A stretch of 64,000 nt of DNA from Candidatus Nanopelagicales bacterium (GTDB lineage: Bacteria; Actinomycetota; Actinomycetes; S36-B12). A program made the translations under genes and the position numbers. Under the pieces are notes generated by a model that worked only from the letters and a program-made list of their open reading frames with translations, ran no database searches and was not told the DNA's origin. Below, piece by piece: positions 38,829 to 59,224 of the stretch (position 1 is its first letter; every line of letters starts with the position of its first letter). The DNA is taken from positions 53,046-117,045 of the forward strand of contig JAURFD010000005.1 in NCBI GenBank assembly GCA_030827125.1, written 5' to 3'.

Positions 38829-38832
38829 GCCC

Positions 38833-40396: not shown

Positions 40397-40414
40397 CTCT
40401 CTCGGCGCCCGTGT

Positions 40415-41884
40415 CTAGGTGGCCCGACCGATGGTCTCGGCGACGATGTCCGCGCTGATCCCCACGAGGGGAAGTCCACCACCGGGGTGCGAGGAGCCAC
40501 CGACCAGATACAGGCCGGGGATCGGCGAGATGTTTGCCGGACGCAGGAAGGCGGCCCGCATCCCGTTGCTGCTAGTGCCGTAGATGGACCCCCCTGGTGC
40601 TCGGTAGCGCTGCTGCAGGTCTGCCGGCGTGCGAATCTCGCGCCACAGAATGCGCGAGCGGAGGTCCACACCGCGGCGGGCGAGAACATCAAGCACGTGG
40701 TCGGCGTACGACTCGCGTTGCTCCTGCCAGTTGACAAGGCCCTCGCGCGCGGCATTGACGAGGATGAACCACGATTCCGAATCATCATCGGGTCGCATGC
40801 GGGGATCATCAGGCACGCAGGCGTAGATGGTGGGATCCGCGACCGGGCGGCCACCGAATACGGCGTCAAACTCCGCGTCGTAATCGGCGGGGAACCAGAC
40901 GTTGTGGTGACGCAGGTTTGCGGTGCGACCGCGGACCGCCGCCATGATCACGAAACCCGATAGCGACGGTGTCGCGCGCTGGACCGTGCGCAGGGGCTTC
41001 CGCGCGCGCGGGTCATCAACCAGGTCCGCGTAGAGCGCGGTGGCATCGACATTAGCCACGACGATGTCGGCATCGATGTGTTCCCCGTCGGTCAGACGCA
41101 CCCCGCTCACGCCGTCGGGGTTGGTGACGATACGTGCGACGTCCGTATGGGTACGCAGTTCGACACCGCGATCGCGGCAGCGCGCGGTGAGGGCATCGGC
41201 CAGCGTCGCAATTCCGCCCCCGAGGTGCCAGGCGCCGAACGCCTGCTCGACGTAGGGGATCGTCATCAAGGCGGCGGGAGCGCGACGCGGGTCCGACCCC
41301 TGGTAGGTCGCGTAGCGATCGAGGAGCGTGACCTGGCGCGGATCGGCAAGGTGGTGACGTCCGAGTCGACGCAGGGACGTGAACGGTGCGACTGCACGCA
41401 CCTCACGAGGATCCGTGGCGAGTTTGATGAGCGTGCCGGCTCCGGCGAGCGGCGAGGTGATGAAGGGCCCACGCGTGATCCGCCAGACCTCACCGGCGCG
41501 CACCATGAGGTCATTCCAATCCTGCTGGGCACGACCGCCGAGTTGCGCCCCCATCGCCTGCGCGATGCGACCGGGGTCGACCCCGGGCACGTCCAGCGAA
41601 GCACCGTCGGCGAAGCGATAGCCAAAGGCGGTTTCCAGCGGCTGGAGGTCAACGCATTCCTCGAACGGTGCGCCTGTCTTGAGGAACAGGTCCCGGTAGA
41701 CCGCGGGCAAAGTCAGCAGGCTCGGGCCCGAGTCAAAGACGAAGCCATCCCGGGAGTAGCGGTCGAGTTTGCCGCCCGCTCGCGGTCCCTGCTCAAGGAC
41801 GAGGACGTCATGGCCTTTCACACGTAACCGCGCGGCGGCTGCGAGTCCCCCCATCCCAGCACCAACGACGACGACGCGAGCCAT
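40415..41884 (-). CDS. Phytoene desaturase family oxidoreductase (CrtD-like carotenoid desaturase or ketolase)
   Basis: VVVVGAGMGGLAAA FAD fold, 489 aa, and the C-terminal block LVGGSSHPGGGLPLVGISA. Substrate cannot be assigned from sequence alone. Confidence 0.75.
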   Translation of the reverse strand: MARVVVVGAGMGGLAAAARLRVKGHDVLVLEQGPRAGGKLDRYSRDGFVFDSGPSLLTLPAVYRDLFLKTGAPFEECVDLQPLETAFGYRFADGASLDVPGVDPGRIAQAMGAQLGGRAQQDWNDLMVRAGEVWRITRGPFITSPLAGAGTLIKLATDPREVRAVAPFTSLRRLGRHHLADPRQVTLLDRYATYQGSDPRRAPAALMTIPYVEQAFGAWHLGGGIATLADALTARCRDRGVELRTHTDVARIVTNPDGVSGVRLTDGEHIDADIVVANVDATALYADLVDDPRARKPLRTVQRATPSLSGFVIMAAVRGRTANLRHHNVWFPADYDAEFDAVFGGRPVADPTIYACVPDDPRMRPDDDSESWFILVNAAREGLVNWQEQRESYADHVLDVLARRGVDLRSRILWREIRTPADLQQRYRAPGGSIYGTSSNGMRAAFLRPANISPIPGLYLVGGSSHPGGGLPLVGISADIVAETIGRAT

Positions 41885-41962
41885 GCGGCCAGCCTATGGC
41901 CGGTCACCGGAGGTCGCCGATGGGAGACCTTGCCGACAGGGGACCTACGCCGACCTGTGGAG

Positions 41963-42844
41963 CTACGCGCGCCAGATCAGCAGTGCGGTGGTGATGCCCA
42001 CAGGGGCCCAAATCCATCCCCAGCGTGCGGCGGTGGCGACAACGGGATCGGCGTAGCCGTAGAGGATCGACAACTGCGGCGGGAAGAACGCCGGGATCGA
42101 GAATGCGAAGAGAACCAGCATGATCGCGACCTCGGGAGTGGGAGCAAAGAAGGCGGCGGTGATGAAGATGACCAGGCGGACCGTCGTGAGAATGAGCCAC
42201 ACGCGCATCCCGGATCGCCACGGCAGTCGCTGGCTCGGATGCAACGCGGACCCGACAAAGACGGCCGCTCCGGAGAGAGCCATGAGCGGTGCGGTCCACA
42301 CCAGCGCGGTTCCGGTCCATTCAGGGGCATCCGATGCCGCATTGAGTCCCAGGCCGATAGCGAGGGCGATCAGCGGCGCCTGATCGATCCACGATGTGCG
42401 TACCCGTTGCGGGCGCGGTGCGTAGCGCCGCAGTACCCAGGTGAGCGAGGAGTACATGAAGACGATGACGCGGTCGGCGAGCACAGCAACCACCGCACCG
42501 GGTGCGCCCGCGACCGAGGTGGCGACCGGGATCACCCAGAAGCCACCGTTGGGGCTCGCTGACCAACCGCGCAGGGCTGCGCGTCCGGGTCGATCGGGCC
42601 CGGCGGGGGTCACGAACCAGGCGGTGATGACGACGACCACAGAGAGAAGTGCGGCAAGCACCGGCCACAGCAGGTCGGCGATATCGGCGAGCCGCCACGC
42701 GGCGAGGAGGGAGACGAAGACCGAGGCGAGCAGGATCTGCGCGCGGATGATGACGCGCCAGGATGACTCGAGTCGACTGCTGCGTGCCGAGAGCACACCG
42801 AGGGTCGCGCCGATGCCGTAGGCGAGGACGACGAGGACGGTCAC
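41963..42844 (-). CDS. Polytopic integral membrane protein, function unknown (possibly permease-like)
   Basis: 293 aa with about 8-10 hydrophobic helices. The GTG start forms a GTGA overlap with the GT2 stop. Confidence 0.6.
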   Translation of the reverse strand: MTVLVVLAYGIGATLGVLSARSSRLESSWRVIIRAQILLASVFVSLLAAWRLADIADLLWPVLAALLSVVVVITAWFVTPAGPDRPGRAALRGWSASPNGGFWVIPVATSVAGAPGAVVAVLADRVIVFMYSSLTWVLRRYAPRPQRVRTSWIDQAPLIALAIGLGLNAASDAPEWTGTALVWTAPLMALSGAAVFVGSALHPSQRLPWRSGMRVWLILTTVRLVIFITAAFFAPTPEVAIMLVLFAFSIPAFFPPQLSILYGYADPVVATAARWGWIWAPVGITTALLIWRA

Positions 42845-44025
42845 GGCAGTGGTCGGCCCCGCCAGGTGAGAGTGCCGGCCCGATGTCCCCGCAGCGACGC
42901 GCTGAGGAGACCGACAAAGGCAGCGATCGAGACGGGCTGGGCGAACGCATCCGGCCAGATCCGCTCACCGGTCTGACGCGCGACGACGACACGACCGGCG
43001 ACCCCGGACGCGTATCCGGCAAGTCCCCACAATCGTGTACGTCGATCCGGACCGGCGACAGCGAAGATCGGCGGAGCGACGTAGGCGAGCAGCATCACCG
43101 CGATGAGACCGTAGGCTGCGGGTTCGGGCTGGAAGGCTGACCACACAGACTTGGTGTACCCCTCGTAGATCTGTGCGGGCCCGGTGTACATCCGGCACCG
43201 GGCAACGGCGCTCCCATCGGCGGGCGCCCCGCGGAACCCCGCGCGCTTGAATGCTCGAAGGACGCCGACGTCTTCCAAGATCATGTCCGACACGGCGGCG
43301 TGTCCGCCGCTGATGCGATAGGCACGCGCATCGACAACGAGGAACTGTCCGACTGCCGCAGCCATCGACGGGTAGTGCTTCGTCTCGGTCAATCGGGCCG
43401 GCAGGGCGGTGACCCACGACCACGTGACCATGGGTTGGGTGATGCGTTCGGCCCAGGTCTCGGCGACCTGATGCGGGTAGGGGGAGAGCAGATCCAGCCC
43501 TCCGTCGCGCATCATGCGCACCGTGGCGGCGACGGCGGCCGGTGCGAGGTGCACGTCAGCATCGATGAAGACGAGCACGGAGCCGGTCGCCTCTTGGGCG
43601 AGGCGATGGCAGGCCCACGACTTGCCGAGCCAGCCGTCAGGGGGCGGCTCATCCGACCCGATGACGAGGCGAAGGCGAGGATCCCGCTCCGCCATCTCCT
43701 TGACGATGCGCGCCGTGTCGTCGTGAGAGCCGTCATCGAGGACGACGACCTCGAGGTCGCGAAGTCCCTGTTGGGCGAGGACACCGCGGAGGGTGGCCCC
43801 GATGCGCTCCGCCTCATCACGCGCCGGAATGAGGATCGAGATCCGCTCCGCGACGTCAACCGGCGTGTTCGTAGGGCGACGCGTCAGGTGCATGTTCACG
43901 GCGGCATGGGCGGTGAGCAGTAACGATGTGACCGCCCCGCTGCCGGCGAGTGCCCGGGCCACGGGCGCGGCGGCATCGCGAAGTCCTCGTCCAGCCGAAT
44001 ATGCCTGAGTCCGTCGTCGAATCAT
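42841..44025 (-). CDS. Family 2 glycosyltransferase with a C-terminal membrane domain (carotenoid glycosyltransferase CrtQ/CruC-like)
   Basis: GT-A blocks ISILIPARDE, VVVLDDGSHDDT and FIDADV, with C-terminal TM helices. The ATG at 44025 forms an ATGA overlap with the upstream stop. Confidence 0.75.
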   Translation of the reverse strand: MIRRRTQAYSAGRGLRDAAAPVARALAGSGAVTSLLLTAHAAVNMHLTRRPTNTPVDVAERISILIPARDEAERIGATLRGVLAQQGLRDLEVVVLDDGSHDDTARIVKEMAERDPRLRLVIGSDEPPPDGWLGKSWACHRLAQEATGSVLVFIDADVHLAPAAVAATVRMMRDGGLDLLSPYPHQVAETWAERITQPMVTWSWVTALPARLTETKHYPSMAAAVGQFLVVDARAYRISGGHAAVSDMILEDVGVLRAFKRAGFRGAPADGSAVARCRMYTGPAQIYEGYTKSVWSAFQPEPAAYGLIAVMLLAYVAPPIFAVAGPDRRTRLWGLAGYASGVAGRVVVARQTGERIWPDAFAQPVSIAAFVGLLSASLRGHRAGTLTWRGRPLP

Positions 44026-44816
44026 GGGCGCCGAGTCCAACTGACCCAGGTGAAGGGAAGGATCACGACCCCCATGAGGATGCCACCCCACAGGGCCACG
44101 CCGGGTCGCCCGAAGAAGGCGGCGTTTGCGAGCACGCTCGAGAAATACACCCACAAAATCATGAGTGTGGGTACGCCGTCACCGAGTCCACGTCGCTGCG
44201 GGAGTCGGGACATCAGGGCCATGATGATGGCGGCGGTGATGATCCAGCCGAAGTAGTTCAGCAGTGGAATCCCCGGGATGCCGGGGAGGGACGGGCTTGT
44301 CGTCTCCCACACCCAATGGCCTTCGGACACCATCTGCGGGTCGAGGAAGAGATCCCAGGAGGCCAGCACCCAGGTGCCGATGATGATGACGCCGGCTCGG
44401 GTGCTGGACAGACGCTGTGCGACCAAGAAGCACGGGTAGGCCATCATCGCCCAGGCGAGCATGACGACGACGGGGACGCCGACGAGCGTTGGTCCGAGAC
44501 TGTCCGCGTATTCGTAGGTCCCGAAGGGCAGCCCCGTAGCAACGCCGACCGCCTCAAGGGCGAGCCCCACCCCGGCAGCGATGACGACGTAGCCCAGTGC
44601 CCAGAGCCATCCACGGGTCAGCCAGGCGTGCGAGAAGGACGCGAGGAAAAAACTGATGACGGTCGCGATCGTGAGCACATCGCGCGCGGGCTCGGCGAGC
44701 AGCCACACGATCTGCCCGCCAATCGTGACTCCGGCAAAGACCCACGGAAGCCACATCCAACTCAGGGGCAGGCGATGGCCATCGGAGTGTGGCCCCTGAT
44801 AGACGCGAATACTCAT
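44022..44816 (-). CDS. Carotenoid biosynthesis membrane protein (CruF-like carotenoid 1,2-hydratase family)
   Basis: 264-aa multi-TM protein. By-eye match to the 'carotenoid biosynthesis protein' family (GLPFGTYEYADSLGP). The ATG at 44816 forms an ATGA overlap with the hydrolase stop. Confidence 0.65.
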   Translation of the reverse strand: MSIRVYQGPHSDGHRLPLSWMWLPWVFAGVTIGGQIVWLLAEPARDVLTIATVISFFLASFSHAWLTRGWLWALGYVVIAAGVGLALEAVGVATGLPFGTYEYADSLGPTLVGVPVVVMLAWAMMAYPCFLVAQRLSSTRAGVIIIGTWVLASWDLFLDPQMVSEGHWVWETTSPSLPGIPGIPLLNYFGWIITAAIIMALMSRLPQRRGLGDGVPTLMILWVYFSSVLANAAFFGRPGVALWGGILMGVVILPFTWVSWTRRP

Positions 44817-45598
44817 ACGGTCGACGTCCTCCGGATGATCTCGGTGGTCACCTTCGGAACATCCCACATCGGCGCGTGACCGCAGTTCCATAGGACATCC
44901 CAGCGGGCGTGTGCCGGAGCCAGATCGCGCTGCTGGAACCGTGGCGCGGGAAGAAGCCGGTCGTTATCCCCGAAGGCGATGGTGACGGGGACCGTGGCCG
45001 GAATCTGCGCGGCACGTTCGAATCGGGTGTGCAGGGCACCGTCGTGGGCGGCTTCGAACCCGCGTGCGTCAGCCTGCGCAACGGCCGCATCAACGGCGAT
45101 GGTGAAGGGAACCGAGGCGGATCGCTCGGTGCCACTGCGCATGAGTTGTCGGCGCAGCGGCGGAATCCCCATGATGGTCGGGATGGCACGTCGGGTGGCC
45201 AGGGCAGCTTTGCGGTTGAACTGGATCGCGCGAATGGGTTTGTGGATCGGCTGCCAGAGGCCCGCGGGACACAGGCCGACCACGCTGTGCGCGCGACCGT
45301 CTGCGGCCGCCTCGAGAACAGTCCACCCGCCGAGGGAATTGCCCACCAAATGCGCCCGCTCAAGATCATGCTGATCCATGAAGGTTCCGAGTGCTCGGGC
45401 GAACATCGCCGGCGTGGCAACGTCGACACCGGGGAGAGGGTCGGAGTCGCCGTGCCCGGGGAGATCGACGGCGTACACCGTGTGATCGTTGGCGAGATCC
45501 GCAACGATGAGATCCCAGCAACGCCGGGATGAGGCGAGACCGTGGACAAGGATGACGGTCGGTCCATGACCGGCGACGTCATACGCCAGCAACGTCAT
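44813..45598 (-). CDS. Alpha/beta hydrolase fold protein, first gene of the carotenoid tailoring operon
   Basis: HGLASS oxyanion region, GNSLGG nucleophile elbow and a C-terminal CGHAP His block. The ATG at 45598 is preceded by GAAAGAGGAGGTGC (strong SD). Confidence 0.8.
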   Translation of the reverse strand: MTLLAYDVAGHGPTVILVHGLASSRRCWDLIVADLANDHTVYAVDLPGHGDSDPLPGVDVATPAMFARALGTFMDQHDLERAHLVGNSLGGWTVLEAAADGRAHSVVGLCPAGLWQPIHKPIRAIQFNRKAALATRRAIPTIMGIPPLRRQLMRSGTERSASVPFTIAVDAAVAQADARGFEAAHDGALHTRFERAAQIPATVPVTIAFGDNDRLLPAPRFQQRDLAPAHARWDVLWNCGHAPMWDVPKVTTEIIRRTSTV

Positions 45599-45663: not shown

Positions 45664-45716
45664 GTCCCGTGCCGGTGGGCCCGGCACTACGCTTCCCATG
45701 AGTGCAGGGAGGCGAT

Positions 45717-46904
45717 GTGGCAGACGCGGAGGGGTCCGACGAGAGCAGTCTCGCTGATCGGCCTGCTCGTCGTGGGATCCCGCCAAGGCCCCCGCTGCCG
45801 ACGCCCTACAACACCCCGGACCAGGTATCTCCGGCATTCCGGCGGATCGGGGGCTACGCCTGGCGGCTCGCGGCCATCGGGGTGGTGCTCTGGGGACTCT
45901 TCCTCCTCATCACCCCGCTGCAGACGTTGATCCTGGCTCTGTTCTTCGCCCTCCTGATCACCGCATGGCTGATGCCACTGACCAACTGGCTCGCCAAGGG
46001 CCTGCCCAGGTGGCTTGCGGGGGTCCTCTCGCTCGTCGGATTTTCCATCGCGGTGGGGCTGGTCATCACCTTCATCGGATTGCAGACCGCGTCGCAATGG
46101 GAAGGGATCGCGGCGGCCTTCAATCAGGGAGTTGCCGACCTGCAGACCTGGCTCCGTGACGGCCCCTTCCACGTCACTGATGCGCAATTGACCAGTGTCT
46201 ATCAATCCGTGGAGCAGTTCATTCGCGACTCTGGCGGTGACATCGCGCTGGGTGTCCTGTCCGGTGTGGGCAGCGTTCTCGGAGTTTTCACCGCCTTGGC
46301 GGCTGCACTCTTTATCCTCGTCTTCCTGCTCATCCAGCCGGAAGTGATGTTCCGCTGGTTCGTCGGATGGCTGCCCGCCCGCAACCGTGAGGTCATCGCC
46401 CAATCCGTGCGGATCGCGTGGGATGGGTTCTCGCAGTACTCGCAGGGGCTCGTGCTGGTGGCGGTCACCAATGCCATCCTGGTGACGATCGTGCTGTTGA
46501 TCATGGGTGTTCCACTGGCGATTCCACTGGGGATCATCGTGTTCTTCGGTGCCTTCATCCCGTACATCGGCGCCCCCATTGCCATGCTTCTCGCCGCATT
46601 CGTGGCGTTCGTGACCGATGGTCCACTGGCGGGAGCTCTCGTCATCGTGCTGATCTTCGTCATTGGTCAGCTCGAGGGCAACGTGCTTCAGCCGCTCATC
46701 ATGGGGCAGACGGTCAATCTCCATCCGGTGGCCATCGTCATGGTCACCGCGGTGGGCGCCGCGTACTTCGGCCTCCTCGGAGCACTCATCGGTGTTCCGC
46801 TCGCGGCCGGTGTCTACGGCGCCATGCGCTACCTCACCGGACCGATTCGCCACGACGATGGATCGCCACCGGAGCCGGCCCCACCGGGCGAAGGTACGTT
46901 CTAG
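45717..46904 (+). CDS. AI-2E family transporter (PerM/UPF0118)
   Basis: About 8 TM helices and a family-typical length. GTG at 45717 preferred because GGGAGG lies 4 nt upstream. An alternative GTG lies at 45702. Confidence 0.8.
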   Translation: MADAEGSDESSLADRPARRGIPPRPPLPTPYNTPDQVSPAFRRIGGYAWRLAAIGVVLWGLFLLITPLQTLILALFFALLITAWLMPLTNWLAKGLPRWLAGVLSLVGFSIAVGLVITFIGLQTASQWEGIAAAFNQGVADLQTWLRDGPFHVTDAQLTSVYQSVEQFIRDSGGDIALGVLSGVGSVLGVFTALAAALFILVFLLIQPEVMFRWFVGWLPARNREVIAQSVRIAWDGFSQYSQGLVLVAVTNAILVTIVLLIMGVPLAIPLGIIVFFGAFIPYIGAPIAMLLAAFVAFVTDGPLAGALVIVLIFVIGQLEGNVLQPLIMGQTVNLHPVAIVMVTAVGAAYFGLLGALIGVPLAAGVYGAMRYLTGPIRHDDGSPPEPAPPGEGTF

Positions 46905-46936: not shown

Positions 46937-48805
46937 CTAGTCCTCGCCGTCGGATTCCTCTACACCGGAGTGCGGCGTGATCGGCCCCGTTGTGCTCATG
47001 CTTGGCCCCCACACCTCAATGCGGTCACGCCCGGTCGACTTGGCACGGTAGAGCGCCTGGTCTGCCTTGGCGAGCATGTCGTTCATCGACTCCAGGGCAT
47101 CACCGCGAAGGCAGCACAGTCCCACGGAAACCGTGAAGGACCCCCCGCTCGGTAGGAAATCGCCGAGCACGGCATTGGCGCGGCTGTGCACGCGGTGCAG
47201 CAGTCGCAGGGCGTCCTCCTCGGTCTCGACGACGACGAGCAGGACGAACTCATCTCCGCCGAAGCGGTAGACACTGTCGGTTCCGCGAATGGAATCGCTC
47301 AGCGCTCTGCCCAGCCGACGTAGGGCTTCGTCGCCGAACTGATGGCCGAAGGTGTCGTTGAGGGCTTTGAAGTCGTCAATATCGACGACGGCGACGCCGA
47401 GCCAGCTGCCGTGACGCTGCACGGAAATGCTGAGTTCATCGAAGGTGGGTTGAAAACGACGGCGGTTGAACACGTCGGTGAGGTGGTCGATGACGCTGTC
47501 GCGGGAGACACTCTCAAGTCGCTCCAGGGAGCCCAATGTGGCGGCGAGCATCGGCGAAATCGTCTCGAGGACTTCGTCGAGATCAGCCGCGGAGCGGACA
47601 CTGGGCGCATCGATCGAGATACGCGCCTGTTGGTTGCCGCCCCGCATGACATCCCACACTCGCCCGCTGGTGTTTCCCTCAGGTGAGGCCCCTGCGCCGA
47701 TGGGAATGGTGATGCCGTCCTCCGGGGCACCTTGGACCTGCCCCTGGATGCGCGGGTAGAGCGTCGACAGGAAGGTGGCGGTAGTAGTGAGGACGTCTTC
47801 CCGTGCGGGGAGATCAATCACAGCGTGGCCGAAGTCGAAGCCGACCCGGTTGCGCGCGGAGGCGTGGTAGGCCCACGTGGCCAATGTCGCAGCGGCAATC
47901 GTGGATAGCAGGCCGATGAGGAGGACCGGCCAGTGGTGCAGGGGATCGGGCACCGTGCTCGCTACGTAGAGGCGCCAGCGGGACTCGTCCGGCAGCGTGA
48001 TGTCACGCACCTCCGCGTCCAACGCCGCTCCGTCCCAGGCGCCCACGAATGCTTCTCCCACGGTGCCGTCAGCATTTACTTTGCGCAGGGAGTACGTGGC
48101 CGGATCGGTGCCGGTCTCCGCCAACGCGGCGAGCATCGCGGGCGCGTCCACCACGGTGGTAGAAAAGCCCCAGAAGTCATCGGGGATTCGATCGGCCCAG
48201 GCCGGATCGGGGGCAAGTCCGGTCACGTCCTCGTAGCGCTCAGCGAAGGGGCGAAGCCCGGGCACGAAGATCGCCTGCCTGATGATGATCCCGGTGCCCC
48301 CCTGCTTGAGGTTGAGGGGTCCGCTGATGATGGGTGCGCGCTCCTCGATGGTGTCGATGATGGTGTCTCGCCGCTCGTCATCGGTGAGCAGGTTGTGCCC
48401 GATTGCGGCAGCATTCTCGGCGGGCCGTGCAGAGTAGGTCACGACGCCGATCGGAGCGAGTTGGTAGTCCAGAAGTGCCGCCCCGAGTTCGTTGACGAGT
48501 GGCGCGGCAAACGGGGCGAATCCCTCGTTGAGAAGTTGCGTCTCACTCACACCGAGCGTTGCGGCCTGAGACACGGTGGCCTCAACGAAGCCTTCGCCGG
48601 CCACGGTGGGGGTGTAGTAGGTCCCGATGGCCTGGTAGATGGCGTTCGACAGGCTCTGGGACGTCTCCGCTGAGGTGATGCGCGCCTGGTTGACGTCCTC
48701 GCCGACGTCGTACCGCAGCAGGAGCGCGGTGATGGCGAAACCGGCAACCAGGATGAAGACGACGTAAACCACGGGAATCCGCAGTGCGTGACGGCGACGC
48801 ATCAT
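46937..48805 (-). CDS. Membrane diguanylate cyclase: TM, CHASE-like extracytoplasmic domain, TM, GGDEF
   Basis: Canonical active site RFGGDEF with the I-site RGTD five residues upstream. A ~270-aa periplasmic domain between two TM helices resembles CHASE. The ATG at 48805 forms an ATGA overlap with the upstream stop. Confidence 0.85.
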   Translation of the reverse strand: MMRRRHALRIPVVYVVFILVAGFAITALLLRYDVGEDVNQARITSAETSQSLSNAIYQAIGTYYTPTVAGEGFVEATVSQAATLGVSETQLLNEGFAPFAAPLVNELGAALLDYQLAPIGVVTYSARPAENAAAIGHNLLTDDERRDTIIDTIEERAPIISGPLNLKQGGTGIIIRQAIFVPGLRPFAERYEDVTGLAPDPAWADRIPDDFWGFSTTVVDAPAMLAALAETGTDPATYSLRKVNADGTVGEAFVGAWDGAALDAEVRDITLPDESRWRLYVASTVPDPLHHWPVLLIGLLSTIAAATLATWAYHASARNRVGFDFGHAVIDLPAREDVLTTTATFLSTLYPRIQGQVQGAPEDGITIPIGAGASPEGNTSGRVWDVMRGGNQQARISIDAPSVRSAADLDEVLETISPMLAATLGSLERLESVSRDSVIDHLTDVFNRRRFQPTFDELSISVQRHGSWLGVAVVDIDDFKALNDTFGHQFGDEALRRLGRALSDSIRGTDSVYRFGGDEFVLLVVVETEEDALRLLHRVHSRANAVLGDFLPSGGSFTVSVGLCCLRGDALESMNDMLAKADQALYRAKSTGRDRIEVWGPSMSTTGPITPHSGVEESDGED

Positions 48806-50634
48806 GGCCTTGGCCGCCAGGGCTGCGTAACGAGGAGTTCGAGATACCGGTCCGGGGAGACGGCGGGCGAGAAGAAGAAGCCCTGCACCTCGCAATCGCC
48901 GGCCTCGCGGACCACCAGCAGTTGGCTCTCGGACTCCACGCCCTCCACGACTACGGTGGCCCCCACGGCCTCGGCGAGCCGGACCATCGCGGTGAGAATT
49001 TCCGTGCTCTGCTGATCGCCCGGTACCGCACTCACGAAGGATCGGTCCAACTTCAAGACGTCAATGGGGAGAGATCGAAGACGTCCAAGGGATGAGTGCC
49101 CGGTGCCAAAGTCATCCAGGGCGACCACGAACCCGCGTTCTTTGAATCGATTGAGCACCGAGGAGCTGTAGTCGAGGTCCTCCATGATGACGGACTCCTG
49201 AATCTCCACCTCGACCAGATACGTGGGTACACCAGCATCGTGGGCCATCCGCTCCATACGGTCGACGACAGAGGGGAGAGCGAATTCGTGATTGGAGAGG
49301 TTGATAGAGATTGGTCGAGCCACGGCGTCGGTTGCGCACACGGTCTGCATTCTCAAGACATGCTCGAACATTGCCTCACCGATGGCGATGATGAGTGACG
49401 ATTGCTCCGCAATCGGGAGGAAGGCGGCGGGGAGGAGGAGCCCGCGCTCGGAGTTCTCCCAGCGGGCGAGGGCTTCACCCGCGACGATGTCACCGGTCGC
49501 GATGTCGACCCGCGGTTGGAAGTAGGCGACGAACTCGCCCCGTTCAAGGCCTTGTCTGATGCGATCTTCCACGGCGAGGACGCGGGCCCGTTCAGCACCC
49601 ATGTCGGACCGGTAGGCGGAGACCCTGCTCCCGATCCGGCGCCGGGTGTGCTCCAGTGCGATCACGGCACGGTCGAGTCCGGCCTCCATCGCGTCGTCAT
49701 CCTCGAGTGTCGCGGCAATTCGGGAGTACCCAACGCACACTTCGAGGGGGATGGAGAATCCCTCGACTGTGATGGGCTCTTCGGCGAGCGCGCGCACATT
49801 TTCGACGATGCCGCTGAGATCATCGTCGTCGAAGCTCCCCTGGATCACAACGGCGAATTCGTCTGGTCCGATGCGACCGACAGTCCAACGATCGACGACC
49901 GGGAGCGATGTACCCGCGCTCGGTGCGGCGTTGACGAGACGCTCGGCCATGATGCGTAGGACGTCGTCACCCACCGACCGACCCAGTGAGTCGTTGATGC
50001 GTCGAAACCGTTGCAGGTCGATTGCGATCACGGCAGAATCCTGGTGCTCGTGTTGGTGGAAGGTATCGACCAGCGCGGCCCGGTTGGCAAGTCCCGTCAG
50101 CAAATCCTGAAACGCTGTGAGGCGCAGGGCTTCAGTCGCCAAGCGTTCCTCCGTCAGGTCGTGCAGCACCAGGATGTACCGGGGGTCGCTGGAGACCTCG
50201 ACGTCGTGAAGTTGGCCGACCGCGATGCGCACCGGGAGGGTGCCCCCATCATCTGTGGCAACGCTGCCCTCGTGGAGTGCCTTGCGCCCTAGTGCGGTGA
50301 TGAGATCCGCTGCGGTGCGGTGCGCCACGCCATCAAGTTCGAGGATCGTGGCGGCGGACATCCCGACGAGGTCGCCTATCGGGGTGTCCAGCAGCGCGGA
50401 GGCCGCGGGGTTCGCTGACTCGATCGATCCGGTCGAGTCCAATACCAAGATGCCCTCCTGGGCAGCCTCGAGCACGGCCGTGACATAGCGCTCTCGAGCC
50501 GCAAGCGAGGCAGCCAACGCGGCGAGCCGTTCGTTGGCTGCGTACAGATCCGCCGACTTGGACTCCAGGAGTCGCTCGGCCTCCGTGCGAGCCCGGCGCT
50601 CTCGCTCGAGGGCCCTGGCCAATGCATCATTCAT
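48802..50634 (-). CDS. Coiled-coil-PAS-GGDEF(degenerate)-EAL protein, probable c-di-GMP phosphodiesterase
   Basis: The GGDEF position reads GPDEF with no RxxD. The EAL domain keeps EAL, INLS, EIQES, DDFGTG, KLD, EGVE and QG. ATG 50634 chosen (13 nt after the H-NOX stop); the longer start at 50742 would overlap the H-NOX gene. Confidence 0.85.
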   Translation of the reverse strand: MNDALARALERERRARTEAERLLESKSADLYAANERLAALAASLAARERYVTAVLEAAQEGILVLDSTGSIESANPAASALLDTPIGDLVGMSAATILELDGVAHRTAADLITALGRKALHEGSVATDDGGTLPVRIAVGQLHDVEVSSDPRYILVLHDLTEERLATEALRLTAFQDLLTGLANRAALVDTFHQHEHQDSAVIAIDLQRFRRINDSLGRSVGDDVLRIMAERLVNAAPSAGTSLPVVDRWTVGRIGPDEFAVVIQGSFDDDDLSGIVENVRALAEEPITVEGFSIPLEVCVGYSRIAATLEDDDAMEAGLDRAVIALEHTRRRIGSRVSAYRSDMGAERARVLAVEDRIRQGLERGEFVAYFQPRVDIATGDIVAGEALARWENSERGLLLPAAFLPIAEQSSLIIAIGEAMFEHVLRMQTVCATDAVARPISINLSNHEFALPSVVDRMERMAHDAGVPTYLVEVEIQESVIMEDLDYSSSVLNRFKERGFVVALDDFGTGHSSLGRLRSLPIDVLKLDRSFVSAVPGDQQSTEILTAMVRLAEAVGATVVVEGVESESQLLVVREAGDCEVQGFFFSPAVSPDRYLELLVTQPWRPRP

Positions 50635-50647
50635 CGGCGAGTGCTGC

Positions 50648-51220
50648 TCAGGTTGGCTGTCGGTCACGCGTTCCCCCTCCGATGGCGAAGTGGGCGACCG
50701 TCTGCCCCTCTTCACGATCCTCCCCCAAGAGTTCCACGGCATCCGACAGGCCGTACGACGCCACCGCGCCCTCCAAGAGGCCGTGGCACAGGGGTGTGAG
50801 GTGACGGTGGGATCGATAGGTCACCTCAATGCCGCCGTCCACGCCGACCATCGCGCGCACCTCGGGTGGCTGAGAATCGGAGTACAGCTTCCGCACGTCG
50901 CGGTGGATCACGTTCTCAATGCCCAAGAGCAATTGCGGCAATTCAGTCATGCCGGCCACCATCGCGGGGTGAAGTCCGGCCAGGGCCCGATAGGCGTCTC
51001 GCCCGAATTCCCTCATGATCTCGGCTCGCGTGCGCCCCTCCCGCCGTGCGAGCGCGTCCACGAGGGCGACGAATTCCGCGGTCGGATAGTCCCCGACGAC
51101 GGTGTAGGCACCGCCGGTCGACAACTCATCACGGGTGTCGCCGATGATCTCGTCCACGGCCATCAACCCGCGGGTCTGTTCTACCCAGCCGGTGAAACTA
51201 CCCACGATGACGCCCTTCAT
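50648..51220 (-). CDS. H-NOX (heme nitric oxide/oxygen-binding, HNOB) domain protein
   Basis: 190 aa. Has the MKGVIVG N-terminus, His106 in NVIHRDVRKLY, Pro118/119 and the Y135-x-S137-x-R139 triad (TYRSHR). Spacing matches the Tt H-NOX landmarks H102, P115 and Y131/S133/R135. Confidence 0.8.
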   Translation of the reverse strand: MKGVIVGSFTGWVEQTRGLMAVDEIIGDTRDELSTGGAYTVVGDYPTAEFVALVDALARREGRTRAEIMREFGRDAYRALAGLHPAMVAGMTELPQLLLGIENVIHRDVRKLYSDSQPPEVRAMVGVDGGIEVTYRSHRHLTPLCHGLLEGAVASYGLSDAVELLGEDREEGQTVAHFAIGGGTRDRQPT

Positions 51221-51278
51221 GGCGTCAGCGTAGGGGTATTGAGCGGCAGATTCTGCTGAGCGGCCCCATCGGCATGGG

Positions 51279-52238
51279 ATGCTGGAAGTTGTGTCTGCCG
51301 GTCATGCCCATGCCCGGGAGCTGACGCGCTGGGTGTGGCTCTCGATCGCCGTGGCTCTGGCGACCATGGGCATGAAGTTCGGCGCCTACCTGATCACGGG
51401 CTCGGTCGGGCTCCTGTCTGACGCCTTGGAGTCCATCGTCAACCTGGTAGCGGCGTTTATCGCGCTCGCGGCGCTGACGGCGGCGACCAAGCCCGCTGAT
51501 GCAAACCATCCCTACGGCCACGGGAAGGCCGAGTACCTCTCGGCAGGTGCGGAGGGTCTCATGATTCTCGTCGCGGCCGGAGCCATCGTCTACGCGTCGG
51601 TTGAGCGCCTCATCAATCCCGCTCCGCTCGAGGACATCGGCATCGGTCTCGCCATCACCATCCTCGCCGCCATCATCAACGGTGCTGTCGGGATTGCGCT
51701 CGTGCGCGTCGGGCGACGCGCACGGTCGATCACCCTTGTGGCGGATGGTCGACACTTGCTCACCGACCTCTACACCTCGATCGGCGTCGTCGTCGGGGTT
51801 GCCCTGGTCGGGCTGACTGGATGGCTTCCTCTGGACTCCATCGTGGCCCTGCTCGTGGCGATGAACATCGCCTGGACCGGGGGAGTGCTCGTGCGTCGTG
51901 CCGGGCGCGGACTTCTCGACCATGCGCTCGATGACGAACTCACCCAATCGATCATCGATGTCCTCGAAGGCATCGCCGAGGAGTATCCACCGGGAGAGGT
52001 GGAGTTCCACGGGCTGCAGTCCCGCGAGTCGGGACGTGACCGCTTCGTAGCCCTCCACGTCCTGGTCCCGGGGGCGTGGTCGATGCGCGCCGCTCACGAT
52101 CTGTCCGAAGATGTCGAGGAGCGGATTGCGCGCGCCGTGCCCCATGCCAGCGTCCATGTGCACCTCGAAGCCATCGAGGATCCGCGCGCCTATGAGGACT
52201 TCACCCAGGGGCCGACCATTCGCCGTGACCCCGAATGA
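51279..52238 (+). CDS. Cation diffusion facilitator (CDF) family metal efflux transporter
   Basis: Six TM helices with the CDF signature (GSVGLLSDALESIVNL, HLLTDLYTS) and a C-terminal cytoplasmic domain. Confidence 0.88.
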   Translation: MLEVVSAGHAHARELTRWVWLSIAVALATMGMKFGAYLITGSVGLLSDALESIVNLVAAFIALAALTAATKPADANHPYGHGKAEYLSAGAEGLMILVAAGAIVYASVERLINPAPLEDIGIGLAITILAAIINGAVGIALVRVGRRARSITLVADGRHLLTDLYTSIGVVVGVALVGLTGWLPLDSIVALLVAMNIAWTGGVLVRRAGRGLLDHALDDELTQSIIDVLEGIAEEYPPGEVEFHGLQSRESGRDRFVALHVLVPGAWSMRAAHDLSEDVEERIARAVPHASVHVHLEAIEDPRAYEDFTQGPTIRRDPE

Positions 52239-52264
52239 ACGCTATACCCCTAGGGGTATAGCGT
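52239..52264. promoter_or_regulatory. 26-bp perfect palindrome ACGCTATACCCCTAGGGGTATAGCGT (CsoR/RcnR-type operator-like, or a terminator hairpin)
   Basis: Self-complementary over all 26 nt. Starts 1 nt after the CDF stop and ends 60 nt before the peroxiredoxin ATG. The core is ATACCCC-TA-GGGGTAT. Confidence 0.4.
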
Positions 52265-52324
52265 CGATATCACCCGCGCGGATCATGGACGTATCAGCGC
52301 ACGACGCCTCGACGAAGGAGCGAC

Positions 52325-52957
52325 ATGGCACTGCATCTTGGCGATGAGGCCCCGAACTTCACGGCGAAGACCACCGACGGCACCATCGACTTCCACGATT
52401 GGAAGTCGGGTTCGTGGGCGGTCTTCTTCAGTCACCCGGCCGATTACACGCCGGTGTGCACAACCGAGTTGGGCAGGACTGCGGCACTTCAGAAGCAGTT
52501 CGAGGCGCGCGGCGTAAAGACGATTGCCATCTCGGTTGACCCCATCGAAGATCATCGCGGGTGGGCGCCCGATATCGGCGATGTCGGTGGCACCGATCTC
52601 AACTTCCCGATCATTGCCGATCCTGACAAGCGGATCTCGGAGATGTACGACATGATCCATCCCGGCGCGGGTGACACCTCATCGGTGCGGTCGGTCTTCA
52701 TCATCGATGGGCGCAACAAGATCCGGTTGACGCTGACCTACCCCAAGTCCGTCGGCCGCAATTTCGATGAGATTCTCCGGGTGATCGACGCTCTGCAACT
52801 CACCGACAAGGCGCCCATTGCAACCCCAGCGGACTGGAAACCAGGCGACCGCGTCATCGTCTCCACCATGGTGTCGACCGACGACGCAAAGGAGCGTTTC
52901 GGCGAGGTCGAAGAAGTGAAGCCCTACCTCCGGTGGACGCCTCACCCCAAGGTTTGA
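52325..52957 (+). CDS. 1-Cys peroxiredoxin (Prx6-type)
   Basis: Peroxidatic Cys motif PADYTPVCTTE, 210 aa. SD GAAGGAG lies upstream. Confidence 0.9.
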   Translation: MALHLGDEAPNFTAKTTDGTIDFHDWKSGSWAVFFSHPADYTPVCTTELGRTAALQKQFEARGVKTIAISVDPIEDHRGWAPDIGDVGGTDLNFPIIADPDKRISEMYDMIHPGAGDTSSVRSVFIIDGRNKIRLTLTYPKSVGRNFDEILRVIDALQLTDKAPIATPADWKPGDRVIVSTMVSTDDAKERFGEVEEVKPYLRWTPHPKV

Positions 52958-54596: not shown

Positions 54597-54704
54597 TCAG
54601 TCGATCGGCACGGCGTGGACGTCGAGGCTGGTGAGCTCCTTGCTGCCCGCGTGGACTGCGAGAGAGGTCAGAGATAGGCGGTCATCACGAGAAGCGTCGC
54701 TCAT
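54597..54704 (-). CDS. Candidate 35-aa small ORF translationally coupled to the AI-2E transporter
   Basis: Its ATG forms an ATGA overlap with the transporter stop (54701-54704). Sequence MSDASRDDRLSLTSLAVHAGSKELTSLDVHAVPID. GC3 is about 77% by my count. Too short for the ORF track and I recognise no homology. Confidence 0.25.
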   Translation of the reverse strand: MSDASRDDRLSLTSLAVHAGSKELTSLDVHAVPID

Positions 54705-55825
54705 GGGCGCTCAACCTCGTGGGCAGTCTCTTCTGACTCTGCGGTTTGGCGGTCTTCTACGAGGTCGTGCCGACGTACGTAGGTCTGCACCAGCGACAGC
54801 AGCATCGCGCTGACCGGGATGGCGAGAAGTGCCCCCGCGACGCCGAAGAGGGAGGCGCCGAGGAGCACTGAAACGAAGCCGTAGGCAGGGTGAACATCGA
54901 CCGCCTTGGCACTGATGCGCGGCTCGATCGTGAGGTTCTCGATCTGCTGGTAGATCAGGGCGTAGACGAGAACAATGACGCCGAGCCACGGATTGCCGCT
55001 CAACAGTCCGACGAGGACGGGCAGGATGATCGAGATGTAGGTGCCGATGGTGGGCACGAACTGAGCCACCAGGCCGGTCCAGATGGCGAGGGGAAGCCAG
55101 TAGGGCAGGCCGATAAGGAAGAAGACGATGCCGCTGGCCGCAGAGTTGATGGTGGCGAGGATGGCCCGCGCAGCCACGTATCGTCCCGTCTTCTCGGCGG
55201 TCACCGTCCACACGGTCGTGAACACCTCCTGACTGCGCTCGGGCAACATGGCCGCGATGAAGCGCCGCAGCCGTAGCCCGTCAGTGGACAGGTAGAAGGC
55301 GATGAGGCCGAAGGTGAACAGCCCGAAGAGGCTGCCGAGGAGCGACGCGGCAAATCCGAAGATCCCGAGCGCCACGTCGCTGGCGATCTGCTGAAGAGCC
55401 GCTTGATCGAGATTGATCTGGTCGAGGATTTCCTGTGCGGAGTACGCCGTCCCGAAGGTCTCGTTGAACCAGATCAGCCCCTGTGCGGCGAGGCCTGGAA
55501 GAGACTCGACGACCTCGATGAGTTGCTCGATGAGCAGTTTGCCGAAGGCGAGGCCAAAAAGGATGAGGAAGACGACAACGCCCCCCATGACGATGAGGGT
55601 GGCGAATCCGCGCGACATGTGCCGGGCAAGTTTGTCCACCGCCGGTGCGATGGCCATGGCGAAGAACCACGCCATCAGAACGGTGAAGATGACCCCACCG
55701 CCGTCCTCCAGCACAAACTTCGCGAAAAGGGCGATGGCGATGAGGGCTATGGCGATGAAGCCAGCGCGCCACAGGAAGCGAAGGGACACCGGATCCCTCG
55801 GTACCTCGGGTGTCGTCTCAGACAT
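54701..55825 (-). CDS. AI-2E family transporter (second paralog)
   Basis: 374 aa with about 8 TM helices. Family-typical C-terminal block (PVLVGLLSGNPWLGVIVLVYALIYQQIENLTIEPRI). Confidence 0.85.
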   Translation of the reverse strand: MSETTPEVPRDPVSLRFLWRAGFIAIALIAIALFAKFVLEDGGGVIFTVLMAWFFAMAIAPAVDKLARHMSRGFATLIVMGGVVVFLILFGLAFGKLLIEQLIEVVESLPGLAAQGLIWFNETFGTAYSAQEILDQINLDQAALQQIASDVALGIFGFAASLLGSLFGLFTFGLIAFYLSTDGLRLRRFIAAMLPERSQEVFTTVWTVTAEKTGRYVAARAILATINSAASGIVFFLIGLPYWLPLAIWTGLVAQFVPTIGTYISIILPVLVGLLSGNPWLGVIVLVYALIYQQIENLTIEPRISAKAVDVHPAYGFVSVLLGASLFGVAGALLAIPVSAMLLSLVQTYVRRHDLVEDRQTAESEETAHEVERP

Positions 55826-55966: not shown

Positions 55967-56656
55967 ATGCTGACTGTGACAAAGTCCGCCTTGGTCGTCG
56001 AAGACGACCCCACCATTCGCATGGTCCTACGCACCAACCTGGAAAACGACGGGTGCCGGGTCATGGAGGCCGAGACGGGTGAGGCCGCCCTCGTCCAACT
56101 CCAGGACGAGATGCCCGACATCGTGCTCGTCGACTTGCGCCTGCCAGGCATTCACGGTCTCGACCTTGTGCGGAGTCTGCGGGCACGCAGCGAGGTACCC
56201 ATCATCATCGTCACAGCCAACACTGACAGCCATGATGTCGTTGCTGGGCTGGAGGCTGGGGCGGATGACTACGTCACCAAGCCATTCGTCACCAAGGAAC
56301 TCATGGCGCGAATTCGACGCCAGTTGCGCCGACCTGTGTCCAGCGCATCGGACGAGGCTGTCCTGCGCTGCGGACCCCTCGAATTGCGCGCCGACACCTG
56401 TGAGGTCTTCCGCGACGGCGTGGCGCTCCCCGTGTCTCGAATTGAGTTCGACGTTCTGCAGGCGCTCATGTCGGCCCAGGGACGTGTGCTCAGCCGTGAC
56501 TACCTTCTGCGTACGGTGTGGGGATACTCGAACGCCGGAGACGGACGCGTCGTCGACAATCTGATCTACCGCCTCCGGGGCAAGATCGAGTCCGATCCGT
56601 CACGCCCCGATCTGCTGCTCACGATTCGCGGCTTCGGCTATCGCATGAAGGCCTAA
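55967..56656 (+). CDS. OmpR/PhoB-family response regulator
   Basis: REC domain (VVEDDP, LVDLRLPG, KPF) plus a winged-helix output domain. SD AGGAGGA lies upstream. Confidence 0.92.
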   Translation: MLTVTKSALVVEDDPTIRMVLRTNLENDGCRVMEAETGEAALVQLQDEMPDIVLVDLRLPGIHGLDLVRSLRARSEVPIIIVTANTDSHDVVAGLEAGADDYVTKPFVTKELMARIRRQLRRPVSSASDEAVLRCGPLELRADTCEVFRDGVALPVSRIEFDVLQALMSAQGRVLSRDYLLRTVWGYSNAGDGRVVDNLIYRLRGKIESDPSRPDLLLTIRGFGYRMKA

Positions 56657-56658
56657 CC

Positions 56659-58595: not shown

Positions 58596-58663
58596 CGCTG
58601 CTGTCGGGAGTTGTCGGACGTGGAGACCGCCCTGGCTTGCATCCTGGGGATAGTGTGAAAGCG

Positions 58664-59224
58664 ATGACCGAACAGCAGGAGTATCGAGTACTTAAGGCCT
58701 TGGGCGACGTAGAACTCCGCGAGTACGCGTCCTGTGTTGTTGCGGATGTCGTGGCGTCCGGTTCGGCGGAGCAGGCTGGAAGCGCCGCATTTCGGCCGCT
58801 CTTCCAATACATCTCCGGAGCGAACCGAGGCGCCGAATCCTTGGCGATGACCGCGCCGGTGATCCAGCAGTCCACCGGCGAACGACTGGCCATGACGGCG
58901 CCGGTCATTCAGGAGGCTACGGACACTGGTGAATGGACCGTTTCCTTCGTGCTCCCGGCCGGGCGCGACCTAGCGGACTACCCGATCCCCACCGATCAGC
59001 GCGTGTCCCTTCGCGCGGTTCCGGCGGAGACAGTGGCTGCCATTCGCTGGTCAGGACGTTGGACCGAGTCGAACGTCGAGCGCCGTACCGAACAACTTCG
59101 GCGGGTGATTGCCGAGGCAGGTTGGCAAGAAGCTGGGGAGCCTCGCTGGGCCCGTTTTGACCCGCCGTGGAAGCCCCCGTTCCTACGACGAAACGAGATC
59201 GTCATCCCCGTGTCGCTGGGATGA
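58664..59224 (+). CDS. SOUL heme-binding family protein
   Basis: Duplicated LAMTAPVIQ motif and a C-terminal PPWKPPFLRRNEI block typical of SOUL/HBP proteins. An alternative TTG start lies at 58637. Confidence 0.8.
   Translation: MTEQQEYRVLKALGDVELREYASCVVADVVASGSAEQAGSAAFRPLFQYISGANRGAESLAMTAPVIQQSTGERLAMTAPVIQEATDTGEWTVSFVLPAGRDLADYPIPTDQRVSLRAVPAETVAAIRWSGRWTESNVERRTEQLRRVIAEAGWQEAGEPRWARFDPPWKPPFLRRNEIVIPVSLG

Follow-up and report, generated by a model that had tools for sequence, protein, structure and literature searches.

Gene Content and Gene Starts of the Locus

Three co-directional open reading frames (ORFs) on the minus strand of contig JAURFD010000005.1 (assembly GCA_030827125.1, Candidatus Nanopelagicales bacterium) encode a stand-alone H-NOX protein (gene 1), a PAS protein with a degenerate GGDEF and an EAL domain (gene 2) and a CHASE-GGDEF protein (gene 3), and it is this locus that is described here. 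All coordinates refer to the window, the whole stretch of 64,000 nt that was analyzed. A previous annotation made from the DNA letters only, hereafter the sequence-only reading, had put an H-NOX/phosphodiesterase/cyclase trio at 46937–51220, and this observation is confirmed, all three frames being present at these positions (Table 1). The hnoX gene directly neighbors genes for GGDEF and EAL proteins and forms an operon with them, the arrangement by which HaCE-type systems are recognized. The locus is flanked by a divergent CDF transporter gene and by a convergent gene for an AI-2E-family transporter.

The start of gene 2 had been set at ATG 50634, leaving a 13-nt gap after gene 1. A start at GTG 50667 is most likely, however, since a GGAGG sequence lies 8 nt upstream of it, the resulting N-terminus (MTDSQ...) resembles those of the orthologs, automatic gene callers choose this codon, and the implied 621-aa protein is on record with NCBI among the sources. 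With this start gene 2 overlaps the H-NOX gene by 20 nt, which replaces the gap; in five orthologs the ATG of gene 2 overlaps the H-NOX stop by 8 nt (ATGxCTGA). At the other junction the stop of gene 2 and the start of gene 3 share the 4-nt ATGA overlap that had been noticed before.

Table 1. Coordinates of the operon, of its domains and upstream region, of neighboring genes in the window, and of the glycosyltransferase genes at related loci
Feature	Position	Strand	Basis or remark
Gene 1, stand-alone H-NOX (HNOB), 190 aa	50648..51220	-	Pfam, PDB alignments, AlphaFold2 and Foldseek, family alignment
Gene 2, predicted c-di-GMP phosphodiesterase, 621 aa	48802..50667	-	GTG 50667 start; alternative ATG 50634
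N-terminal helix of gene 2, residues ~14–61	50485..50628	-	regex scan; motif LERERRARTEAERLLESKSADLYAAN
PAS domain of gene 2, residues ~63–175	50143..50481	-	PAS_8, PAS_9, PAS_4 E = 1e-5 to 8e-5; TIGR00229 E = 2.9e-7
Degenerate GGDEF of gene 2	49642..50115	-	Pfam E = 6.5e-18 (weak); signature GPDEF
EAL of gene 2	48865..49566	-	Pfam E = 1.2e-61; QP, EALxR, N, ExxE, DDFGTG, KxD, EGVE, QG
Gene 3, predicted membrane diguanylate cyclase, 622 aa (621 aa from second ATG)	46937..48805	-	Pfam, NCBIfam, hydropathy, motifs
CHASE-type sensor region of gene 3, residues 36–290	47936..48700	-	Pfam CHASE, hydropathy
Catalytic-type GGDEF of gene 3	47021..47494	-	Pfam E = 3.1e-38; TIGR00254 E = 2.4e-42
Divergent intergenic region H-NOX/CDF, 58 bp	51221..51278	.	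sequence comparison
TANNNT -10-like hexamer TACGCT	51227..51232	-	ends 6 nt before the H-NOX ATG
CDF transporter gene	51279-52238	+	divergent from gene 1
CDF metal-efflux gene, then 1-Cys peroxiredoxin gene	51279-52957	+
AI-2E-family (PF01594) transporter gene	45702-46904	+	convergent with gene 3
AI-2E-family (PF01594) transporter gene	54701-55825	-	second of the two bracketing the region
SOUL-family heme-binding protein	58637-59224	+	Pfam E = 9e-45; 7.4 kb from H-NOX
Carotenoid gene cluster	34649-44891	-/+	beyond the operon
MptB-like membrane protein	34649-36217
CrtI-type desaturase	36250-37764
Polyprenyl (geranylgeranyl diphosphate, GGPP) synthase	37764-38828
Na+/H+ exchanger with TrkA_C domain	38900-40396		opposite strand, within the carotenoid cluster
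CrtI-type desaturase	40415-41884
293-aa ORF	41963-42844		no family match
CruG-like family 2 glycosyltransferase	42841-44154
CruF-like hydratase	44022-44891
qcrB-qcrA-qcrC-ctaE with trpD	2806-9008		cytochrome bc1, COX3; QcrA_N region included
Family 2 glycosyltransferase gene at related loci	L008:4081-5985
	L009:4075-5985
	L010:653-2566
	L011:859-2772
	L089:5072-6985

The H-NOX Protein

Gene 1 matches the Pfam HNOB profile (PF07700) significantly, with E = 6.9e-26 and 91.5 bits (cut-off 25.5) over positions 1–157 of the 163 in the profile, as expected from the previous assignment. A phmmer search of the PDB with gene 1 returned H-NOX proteins only, with Kordia algicida (Ka) H-NOX (6bde, E = 2.2e-15, and 6bdd) ranking before that of Shewanella woodyi (6ocv, E = 5e-12), Shewanella oneidensis (So, 4u99) and Tt H-NOX (1u4h). 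The chains of 6bde and 6bdd are mislabeled as "2,4-dihydroxyhept-2-ene-1,7-dioic acid aldolase" in the sequence file; according to the structure library they are Kordia algicida H-NOX. In the PDB alignments His106 falls on the proximal histidine, and Y135/S137/R139 on the YxSxR motif, of Kordia and Shewanella H-NOX. Alignment with a Tt H-NOX reference entered by hand pairs H106 with H102, P118/P119 with P114/P115 and Y135/S137/R139 with Y131/S133/R135, and so reproduces the landmarks (His106, Pro118/119, Y135-x-S137-x-R139) and the constant +4 offset of the sequence-only reading. At the distal positions this hand-entered Tt sequence sets F9 against W9, A76 against N74 and L144 against Y140; the leucine expected at the Tt Tyr140 position is thus L144, and the pocket formed by F9, A76 and L144 is non-polar, with no W9/N74/Y140-like network. 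According to the general rule, H-NOX proteins that have no distal tyrosine or hydrogen-bond network are selective for nitric oxide (NO) (PMC12329717), and since F9/A76/L144 offer no such network we read gene 1 as a putative NO sensor and not as an O2 sensor.

Across 22 aligned relatives (alignment A1), Y135, S137, R139 and P119 are invariant, as are G73 and G147, the two glycine hinges, while H106 and L144 are conserved in at least 90%. An AlphaFold2 model of gene 1 built on this 22-relative alignment (pLDDT 87.8, pTM 0.84) contains seven helices and four strands and has the H-NOX fold, comprising an N-terminal helical subdomain and an alpha/beta subdomain with a four-stranded sheet. The best 46 Foldseek matches of the model in the PDB are all H-NOX proteins or the beta subunit of soluble guanylate cyclase, at template-modeling (TM) scores of 0.70–0.84, and the scores to Ka, Cs/Tt and So H-NOX are 0.79–0.84, so that superposition on solved structures, Tt H-NOX included, bears out the family assignment. 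A Pfam RHH_1 match (E = 2.8e-4, residues 49–71) lies inside high-confidence H-NOX helices and was taken as noise.

The zinc site of So H-NOX consists of C139, C164 and C172 with a His or Gln, and a heme-independent redox response has been described for the Vibrio cholerae (Vc) and So proteins (PMC7108781). Gene 1 has a single cysteine, C145, and So C139 aligns to T142; it therefore has no such Cys3 zinc site and falls outside the zinc-bearing, redox-sensing subgroup.

The Predicted Cyclic di-GMP Enzymes

Gene 2 reads, from its N-terminus, as a helix followed by a PAS domain, for which the Pfam and NCBIfam matches are weak, a degenerate GGDEF domain and an EAL domain. The sequence-only reading had described it as a PAS protein with GPDEF in place of GGDEF, no RxxD and a complete EAL set, and in this it is supported by profiles, motifs and alignments alike; only the ATG start 13 nt downstream of gene 1 is probably to be replaced. 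Alignments to 5m3c, a GGDEF-EAL structure, and to MorA (4rnh) show that the EAL domain has all catalytic and substrate-binding residues, and its motifs are kept in all nine sequences of the clade, with conservative substitutions in three. The GGDEF domain has no RxxD at the I-site position and retains the D...ND...GD residues for metal and GTP binding. Among eight orthologs the signature is degenerate in seven (GPDEF, GADEF, SSDEF or SGDEF) with D..ND..GD retained, and reads GGDEF in L093 alone. Because the EAL domain is intact and the GGDEF domain degenerate, both here and in seven of the eight orthologs, gene 2 is predicted to be an enzyme with phosphodiesterase (PDE) activity only, in which the pseudo-cyclase domain, having kept its GTP-binding residues, probably acts as a regulatory domain. 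With GPDEF it does not belong with bifunctional HaCE proteins such as SwDGC, which combine an active GGDEF with an active EAL domain.

Gene 3 consists of a first transmembrane segment, an extracytoplasmic CHASE region, a second transmembrane segment, a linker of ~120 aa and a GGDEF domain with an RGTD I-site. The hydrophobic segments (residues 5–35 and 291–313) enclose ~255 extracytoplasmic residues, slightly fewer than the ~270 estimated before; otherwise profiles and motifs agree with the earlier description of a CHASE-like membrane protein with canonical GGDEF and RGTD. The Pfam CHASE profile (PF03924) is matched with 33.6 bits (threshold 25), and by the orthologs with 31–35 bits. The GGDEF motif stands at residue 516 with RGTD at 507, five residues upstream, and the DID..ND..GD residues are present; GGDEF and RxxD are found in gene 3 of all orthologs. 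From these motifs gene 3 is predicted to be a diguanylate cyclase (DGC) subject to product inhibition by cyclic di-GMP (c-di-GMP) at the I-site.

Conservation of the Operon in Relatives

When 185,579 species genomes were scanned with a pattern, 210 relatives were obtained (loci are numbered with the prefix L). Among the best 80 of these 210 are only five close relatives of 51–66% identity, all from metagenome-assembled genomes (MAGs), four of them carrying actinobacterial labels and none belonging to the species of the window; the close relatives with taxon labels are Actinomycetota/Nanopelagicales MAGs. The clade is rare, with only four clusters at 50% identity among 1.84 billion representatives reaching E<=1e-30. 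H-NOX followed by the PAS–degenerate GGDEF–EAL gene is found in all close relatives (complete trio in L007–L011, L087, L090 and L097; H-NOX then PDE in L089, L092 and L093), and the CHASE-GGDEF gene comes next wherever the contig is long enough. L093 is the one exception, with an MFS gene in this position. The gene order is kept at H-NOX identities of 43–67% and in three unrelated neighborhoods. In context A (window, L007, L087) CDF and peroxiredoxin genes lie on one side and an AI-2E transporter gene on the other; context B (L008–L011, L089, L090) has SbcCD and a sugar transporter, and in L008–L011 and L089 also an upstream gene for a cellulose-synthase-like family 2 glycosyltransferase (GT2); in context C (L092, L097) a P-type ATPase gene lies upstream. 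The GT2 gene (634–637 aa) has the orientation of H-NOX and is located 16 nt upstream of it, and the L010 protein matches the Pfam PilZ profile (E = 3.5e-6) and has an RxxxR motif. In this sister sub-clade one operon would hold the sensor, the PDE, the DGC and, with the GT2, a likely c-di-GMP effector. A relative of lower GC content (L093, positions 3–2783, and L094; GC 0.59, H-NOX 48% identical) carries a GGDEF cyclase gene, H-NOX and a PAS-GGDEF-EAL gene, its PDE having an intact GGDEF signature and being followed by no CHASE cyclase.

The other 75 loci present a different picture: ~65 of them pair H-NOX with a histidine kinase and two (L054, L063) with a GGDEF-EAL protein, and a CHASE cyclase beside H-NOX is found in none of these 75 non-actinobacterial loci, which extends the previous remark that such a cyclase is not part of the described pairs. 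In a simple neighbor-joining tree, whose outgroup sequence was entered by hand, the actinobacterial loci together with L092 and L093 form a clade with 92% bootstrap support, outside the sampled proteobacterial (mostly kinase-linked) and Bacteroidota sequences. The operon region has a GC content of 0.64, near the window mean (~0.66). A recent horizontal acquisition, raised as a possibility in the sequence-only reading, was rejected on these grounds, GC content and tree position giving no sign of a recent proteobacterial donor. Among more distant homologs of gene 3, a PAS–degenerate GGDEF–EAL/CHASE-GGDEF pair exists at L096 (2664–6220) without H-NOX, and a CHASE-GGDEF cyclase stands alone beside Tad-pilus genes at L095 (5838–7751), which suggests that H-NOX joined an older two-gene module.

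The Candidate Partner Helix

The N-terminal helix of gene 2 has the consensus l..rleRER.ARk.AE.lLE.KSleLy.aNq.L and is more conserved among the gene 2 orthologs than the PAS domain. A regular expression for its core, RERxARxxAExLLExKS, run over all six frames of 91 loci (935 kb), gave exactly one match in 83 loci, and each of these 83 matches lies at the N-terminal end of the next gene downstream of H-NOX. Carriers of the motif are HnoK-type kinases, PAS-kinases and GGDEF-EAL proteins alike, with kinases in 60+ loci; the proteobacterial H-NOX-adjacent GGDEF-EAL proteins of L054 and L063 have it as in gene 2. Gene 2 carries the motif, gene 3 does not, and the H-NOX-less PDE of L096 is without it. 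This co-occurrence makes gene 2, and not gene 3, the likely direct partner of H-NOX, and the helix itself a candidate for a general H-NOX docking element. No match to HNOBA or another Pfam model was obtained for the helix even at E<=10. A published description of such a partner helix was not found either, which is weak evidence given that papers in subscription journals lay mostly outside the search.

The Upstream Region

In the two relatives that share context A, the hexamer upstream of H-NOX has counterparts, TACTCT in L007 (5989–5994) at the same distance and TAGGCT in L087 (~6988–6993) 7 nt before a GTG. No Shine–Dalgarno sequence was seen upstream of H-NOX, and because this goes together with a TANNNT hexamer 6–7 nt before the start, the operon transcript is probably leaderless. 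Leaderless transcripts are common in Actinobacteria. In the operon region no sigma-70 consensus promoter was found and terminator-like matches are at chance level; Rfam gave no match to a c-di-GMP riboswitch or other known RNA in the 64 kb.

The element TGAGCGG-CAGATTCTGC-TGAGCGG with its palindrome, to which the sequence-only reading had drawn attention, is indeed present at 51240–51264. A role as a regulatory site is unsupported: 5-1-5 palindromes are expected ~0.08 times per stretch of the size of the 58-bp region, 6% of stretches of 58 nt contain an exact 8-nt direct repeat, the 64-kb window shows no enrichment of TGAGCGGC, and neither repeat nor palindrome is conserved in the orthologous intergenic regions of L007 and L087. 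The pair was therefore rejected as evidence for an operator.

Proposed Mechanism and Alternatives

We consider it probable, if well short of certain, that in this three-gene operon NO-bound H-NOX controls the PDE while the CHASE cyclase supplies c-di-GMP. The operon would belong to an uncultured, aerobic freshwater actinobacterium of the Nanopelagicales type and would probably be transcribed as leaderless mRNA. Its cytoplasmic H-NOX would bind heme and, with a distal pocket free of hydrogen bonds, serve as the NO sensor, docking on gene 2, probably via the N-terminal helix common to H-NOX partners, by analogy with the H-NOX/HaCE and H-NOX/HnoK pairs. On NO binding the bond between Fe and His106 would break and the protein reshape around its glycine hinges, altering the activity of the PDE; stimulation is the most likely direction, in which case c-di-GMP would fall. 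Gene 3 would synthesize c-di-GMP in response to an extracellular ligand sensed by CHASE, limited by feedback at the I-site, so that the operon would combine a gas signal from inside the cell with a signal from outside in a single pool of c-di-GMP. For the context B sub-clade, the GT2 gene that begins the operon and the PilZ match in one member suggest exopolysaccharide synthesis as the output. The interpretation given by the sequence-only reading is supported, all of its sequence-level predictions having passed, and it is strengthened by the conserved gene order and by the helix motif on gene 2; heme binding, NO binding and enzyme regulation are predicted functions.

Several points weigh against this account. 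The sign of the regulation varies between known systems, NO raising c-di-GMP via HnoK in S. oneidensis and lowering it in S. woodyi. The helix is assigned as a docking site by correlation, with a single locus (L096) as H-NOX-less control, and for the clade as a whole we infer heme binding, ligand selectivity and protein–protein interaction from sequence. The comparison at Y140 uses a Tt sequence entered by hand, and the CHASE match of gene 3 spans only positions 65–175 of the 189 in the profile. With regard to the output, the DxSxxG motif of the sister-clade GT2 reads DLHEAG, the L008 GT2 has no Pfam PilZ match at E<=0.001, and tblastn searches with the L008 and L010 proteins found no PilZ-GT2 homolog in the window.

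Instead of NO, the H-NOX might mainly sense redox state or oxidants, by oxidation of the heme iron from the Fe(II) to the Fe(III) state or by autoxidation that depends on O2, with c-di-GMP reporting oxidative stress in an aerobic, sunlit habitat. Such a role is in keeping with an obligate-aerobe-type host and the adjoining carotenoid cluster, with the 1-Cys peroxiredoxin gene two genes away in context A, and with the finding that the kinases of So and Vc H-NOX are inhibited to the same degree by the Fe(III) as by the Fe(II)–NO form of the sensor (PMC7108781, PMC12329717). The peroxiredoxin linkage is not kept in contexts B and C, however, the Cys3 zinc site is absent (one Cys), and conservation extends to every residue of the heme site and the NO-type pocket; we therefore hold this alternative to be rather unlikely, while noting that heme oxidation and NO sensing are compatible with each other. 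A different target is a further alternative, H-NOX acting mainly on gene 3 (for example on its 120-residue linker, inhibiting synthesis) or on both enzymes in a ternary complex, in which case gene 2 would be a PDE that is constitutive or under the control of GTP. In Legionella pneumophila (Hnox1/Lpg1057) and Dinoroseobacter shibae it is a DGC that NO-bound H-NOX inhibits (PMC8846402), most members of the clade have kept gene 3 together with H-NOX, and in L093 a GGDEF gene lies directly upstream of H-NOX and overlaps it. Set against this, the PDE is the constant neighbor in every clade member, L093 having no CHASE cyclase at all, the helix motif occurs on gene 2 only, and the PDE of the H-NOX-less PDE/CHASE-DGC pair at L096 is without it, which leaves a gene 3 target unlikely in our judgment.

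That the adjacency has no functional meaning, with three independent signaling proteins side by side, or that the H-NOX is a heme-free relic, appears very improbable. The functional coupling is a prediction, and c-di-GMP genes are numerous and often clustered; but stop/start overlaps recur in all orthologs, the order is kept at 43–67% H-NOX identity in three contexts, the heme-ligand residues are conserved across relatives, and gene 2 bears the partner motif. Beyond the main reading we offer, with more doubt than conviction, a wider proposal: that the clade is a rare, deep-branching H-NOX lineage wired exclusively to c-di-GMP enzymes, known to date from uncultured bacteria only (labeled members all Actinomycetota), that it might form a two-input switch for NO and an extracellular ligand which in sister species would drive a PilZ-type exopolysaccharide glycosyltransferase, and that the helix might be a general docking or transmission element, shared by kinases and c-di-GMP enzymes that partner H-NOX.

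Comparison with Known Systems

NO-regulated pairs of H-NOX with a DGC/PDE are known from S. woodyi, L. pneumophila and D. shibae, and an HnoX–HnoK–HnoB relay from S. oneidensis and V. cholerae (PMC8846402; pairs also PMC12329717). The closest parallel is the S. woodyi H-NOX/HaCE (SwDGC) pair, in which a stand-alone H-NOX without distal tyrosine likewise lies beside a GGDEF-EAL enzyme, NO binding shifting HaCE towards c-di-GMP hydrolysis (PMC8846402), and whose solved H-NOX structure (6ocv) matches gene 1 in sequence and fold. SwDGC is bifunctional, whereas gene 2 has GPDEF and synthesis would reside in the separate gene 3; moreover, the present locus belongs to another phylum and a separate H-NOX clade, and nothing that corresponds to its membrane CHASE-GGDEF cyclase is part of the pairs described. 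Hnox1/Lpg1057 of L. pneumophila and H-NOX/Dgc1 of D. shibae also have an H-NOX next to a c-di-GMP enzyme that it regulates directly when NO is present, as is proposed here, but their target is a DGC inhibited by NO-bound H-NOX, while the motif-bearing neighbor here is a predicted PDE-only protein. In the HnoX–HnoK–HnoB–HnoD systems of S. oneidensis and V. cholerae H-NOX ultimately controls an EAL phosphodiesterase and biofilm (PMC8846402), So H-NOX (4u99) matches gene 1 in sequence and fold, and HnoK-type kinases share the helix of gene 2. Their control is indirect, running through a histidine kinase and a phosphorelay, whereas here the PDE itself bears the partner helix, and gene 1 does not have the Cys3 zinc site described for So and Vc H-NOX (PMC7108781).

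Among individual proteins, Kordia (6bdd/6bde) and Tt (1u4h) H-NOX are the best sequence and structure matches, alike in heme-binding residues and fold, although gene 1 is only 21–27% identical to them. Tt H-NOX differs as the O2-binding domain of a chemotaxis receptor, with W9/N74/Y140 where gene 1, by the hand-entered Tt sequence, has F9/A76/L144, and the residue at the first hinge, Gly73 in gene 1, is Ala in wild-type Ka H-NOX. For gene 2 a parallel is offered by Caulobacter PdeA (CC3396), in which, as Christen and co-workers reportedly found in 2005, the EAL domain is activated by a degenerate GEDEF domain that binds GTP. Both proteins have a degenerate GG(D/E)EF domain with D/N/D retained upstream of a complete EAL domain; gene 2 adds PAS and the H-NOX-partner helix, and activation of gene 2 by GTP would be an analogy only.

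To our knowledge, experimental proof that H-NOX controls c-di-GMP signaling comes from Proteobacteria only. In Actinobacteria, NsrR, DosS/DosT and Wbl proteins are regarded as the NO sensors. H-NOX homologues in Actinobacteria (Acidimicrobiaceae, Nocardioidaceae, Micrococcaceae, Mycobacteriaceae) are listed in a review from 2022, which describes them as uncharacterized and states that no NO-sensing H-NOX from a Gram-positive species has been reported (PMC8738867). The earlier statement that H-NOX signaling is uncharacterized in Actinobacteria stands in so far as we found no characterization beyond the remark in this review, in a literature search that covered subscription-journal papers thinly; the presence of homologues had already been noted there. 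The novelty is accordingly in characterization and architecture, not in the mere presence of an actinobacterial H-NOX. The three-gene architecture with make and break split between proteins, the CHASE input, the GT2 linkage in sister genomes and the partner-helix evidence were not found described. Under the wider proposal made above, the operon would give a Gram-positive phylum its first NO-to-c-di-GMP pathway, and this in planktonic freshwater actinobacteria that are usually seen as free-living and non-biofilm. It would tie NO to surface or aggregate behavior in abundant freshwater actinobacteria, for which nitrite photolysis, nitrifiers, denitrifiers and algae may, speculatively, be sources of NO. 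The system would be compact, with a soluble sensor of 190 aa, a partner that has PDE activity only, a cyclase of its own gene that senses an extracellular signal and, in sister genomes, a polysaccharide synthase as plausible output, and the division of make and break over two proteins, one with the helix, would make it a clean case for studying H-NOX target recognition.

Host and Neighboring Genes

Judged from its gene content the host is an actinobacterium, because the window holds an actinobacterial gene set (ctaE-qcrCAB with trpD, a PASTA Ser/Thr kinase, MMPL, GT87 and an MptB-like mannosyltransferase) and proteins that fall into 90%-identity clusters with proteins of MAGs labeled by NCBI as "Candidatus Nanopelagicales bacterium" or "Actinomycetales bacterium". 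The adjacency of ctaE-qcrCAB and trpD resembles that in Mycobacterium tuberculosis. This arrangement is typical of Actinobacteria, and qcrCAB and ctaE indicate an aerobic respiratory chain that depends on heme. The identical H-NOX protein is found on 25 metagenomic contigs, with the same flanking genes in six of six places among the matches listed, which makes a chimeric contig unlikely. As a further heme-sensor candidate of the DosS/DosT type we considered a GAF-HisKA_3-HATPase kinase (15170–16909, minus strand; 579 aa, about the length of DosS) and rejected it, as only its ATPase domain resembles DevS/DosT and its GAF part matched none of the solved DevS/DosT structures.

The remaining neighbors are listed in Table 1. 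The CDF and peroxiredoxin genes stand beside the operon in context A only, and the AI-2E gene convergent with gene 3 is kept in L007 and L087. A link between the SOUL protein and heme supply for H-NOX would be pure speculation; between the H-NOX and SOUL genes lies a two-component pair of OmpR type and HAMP-kinase (55967–57993).

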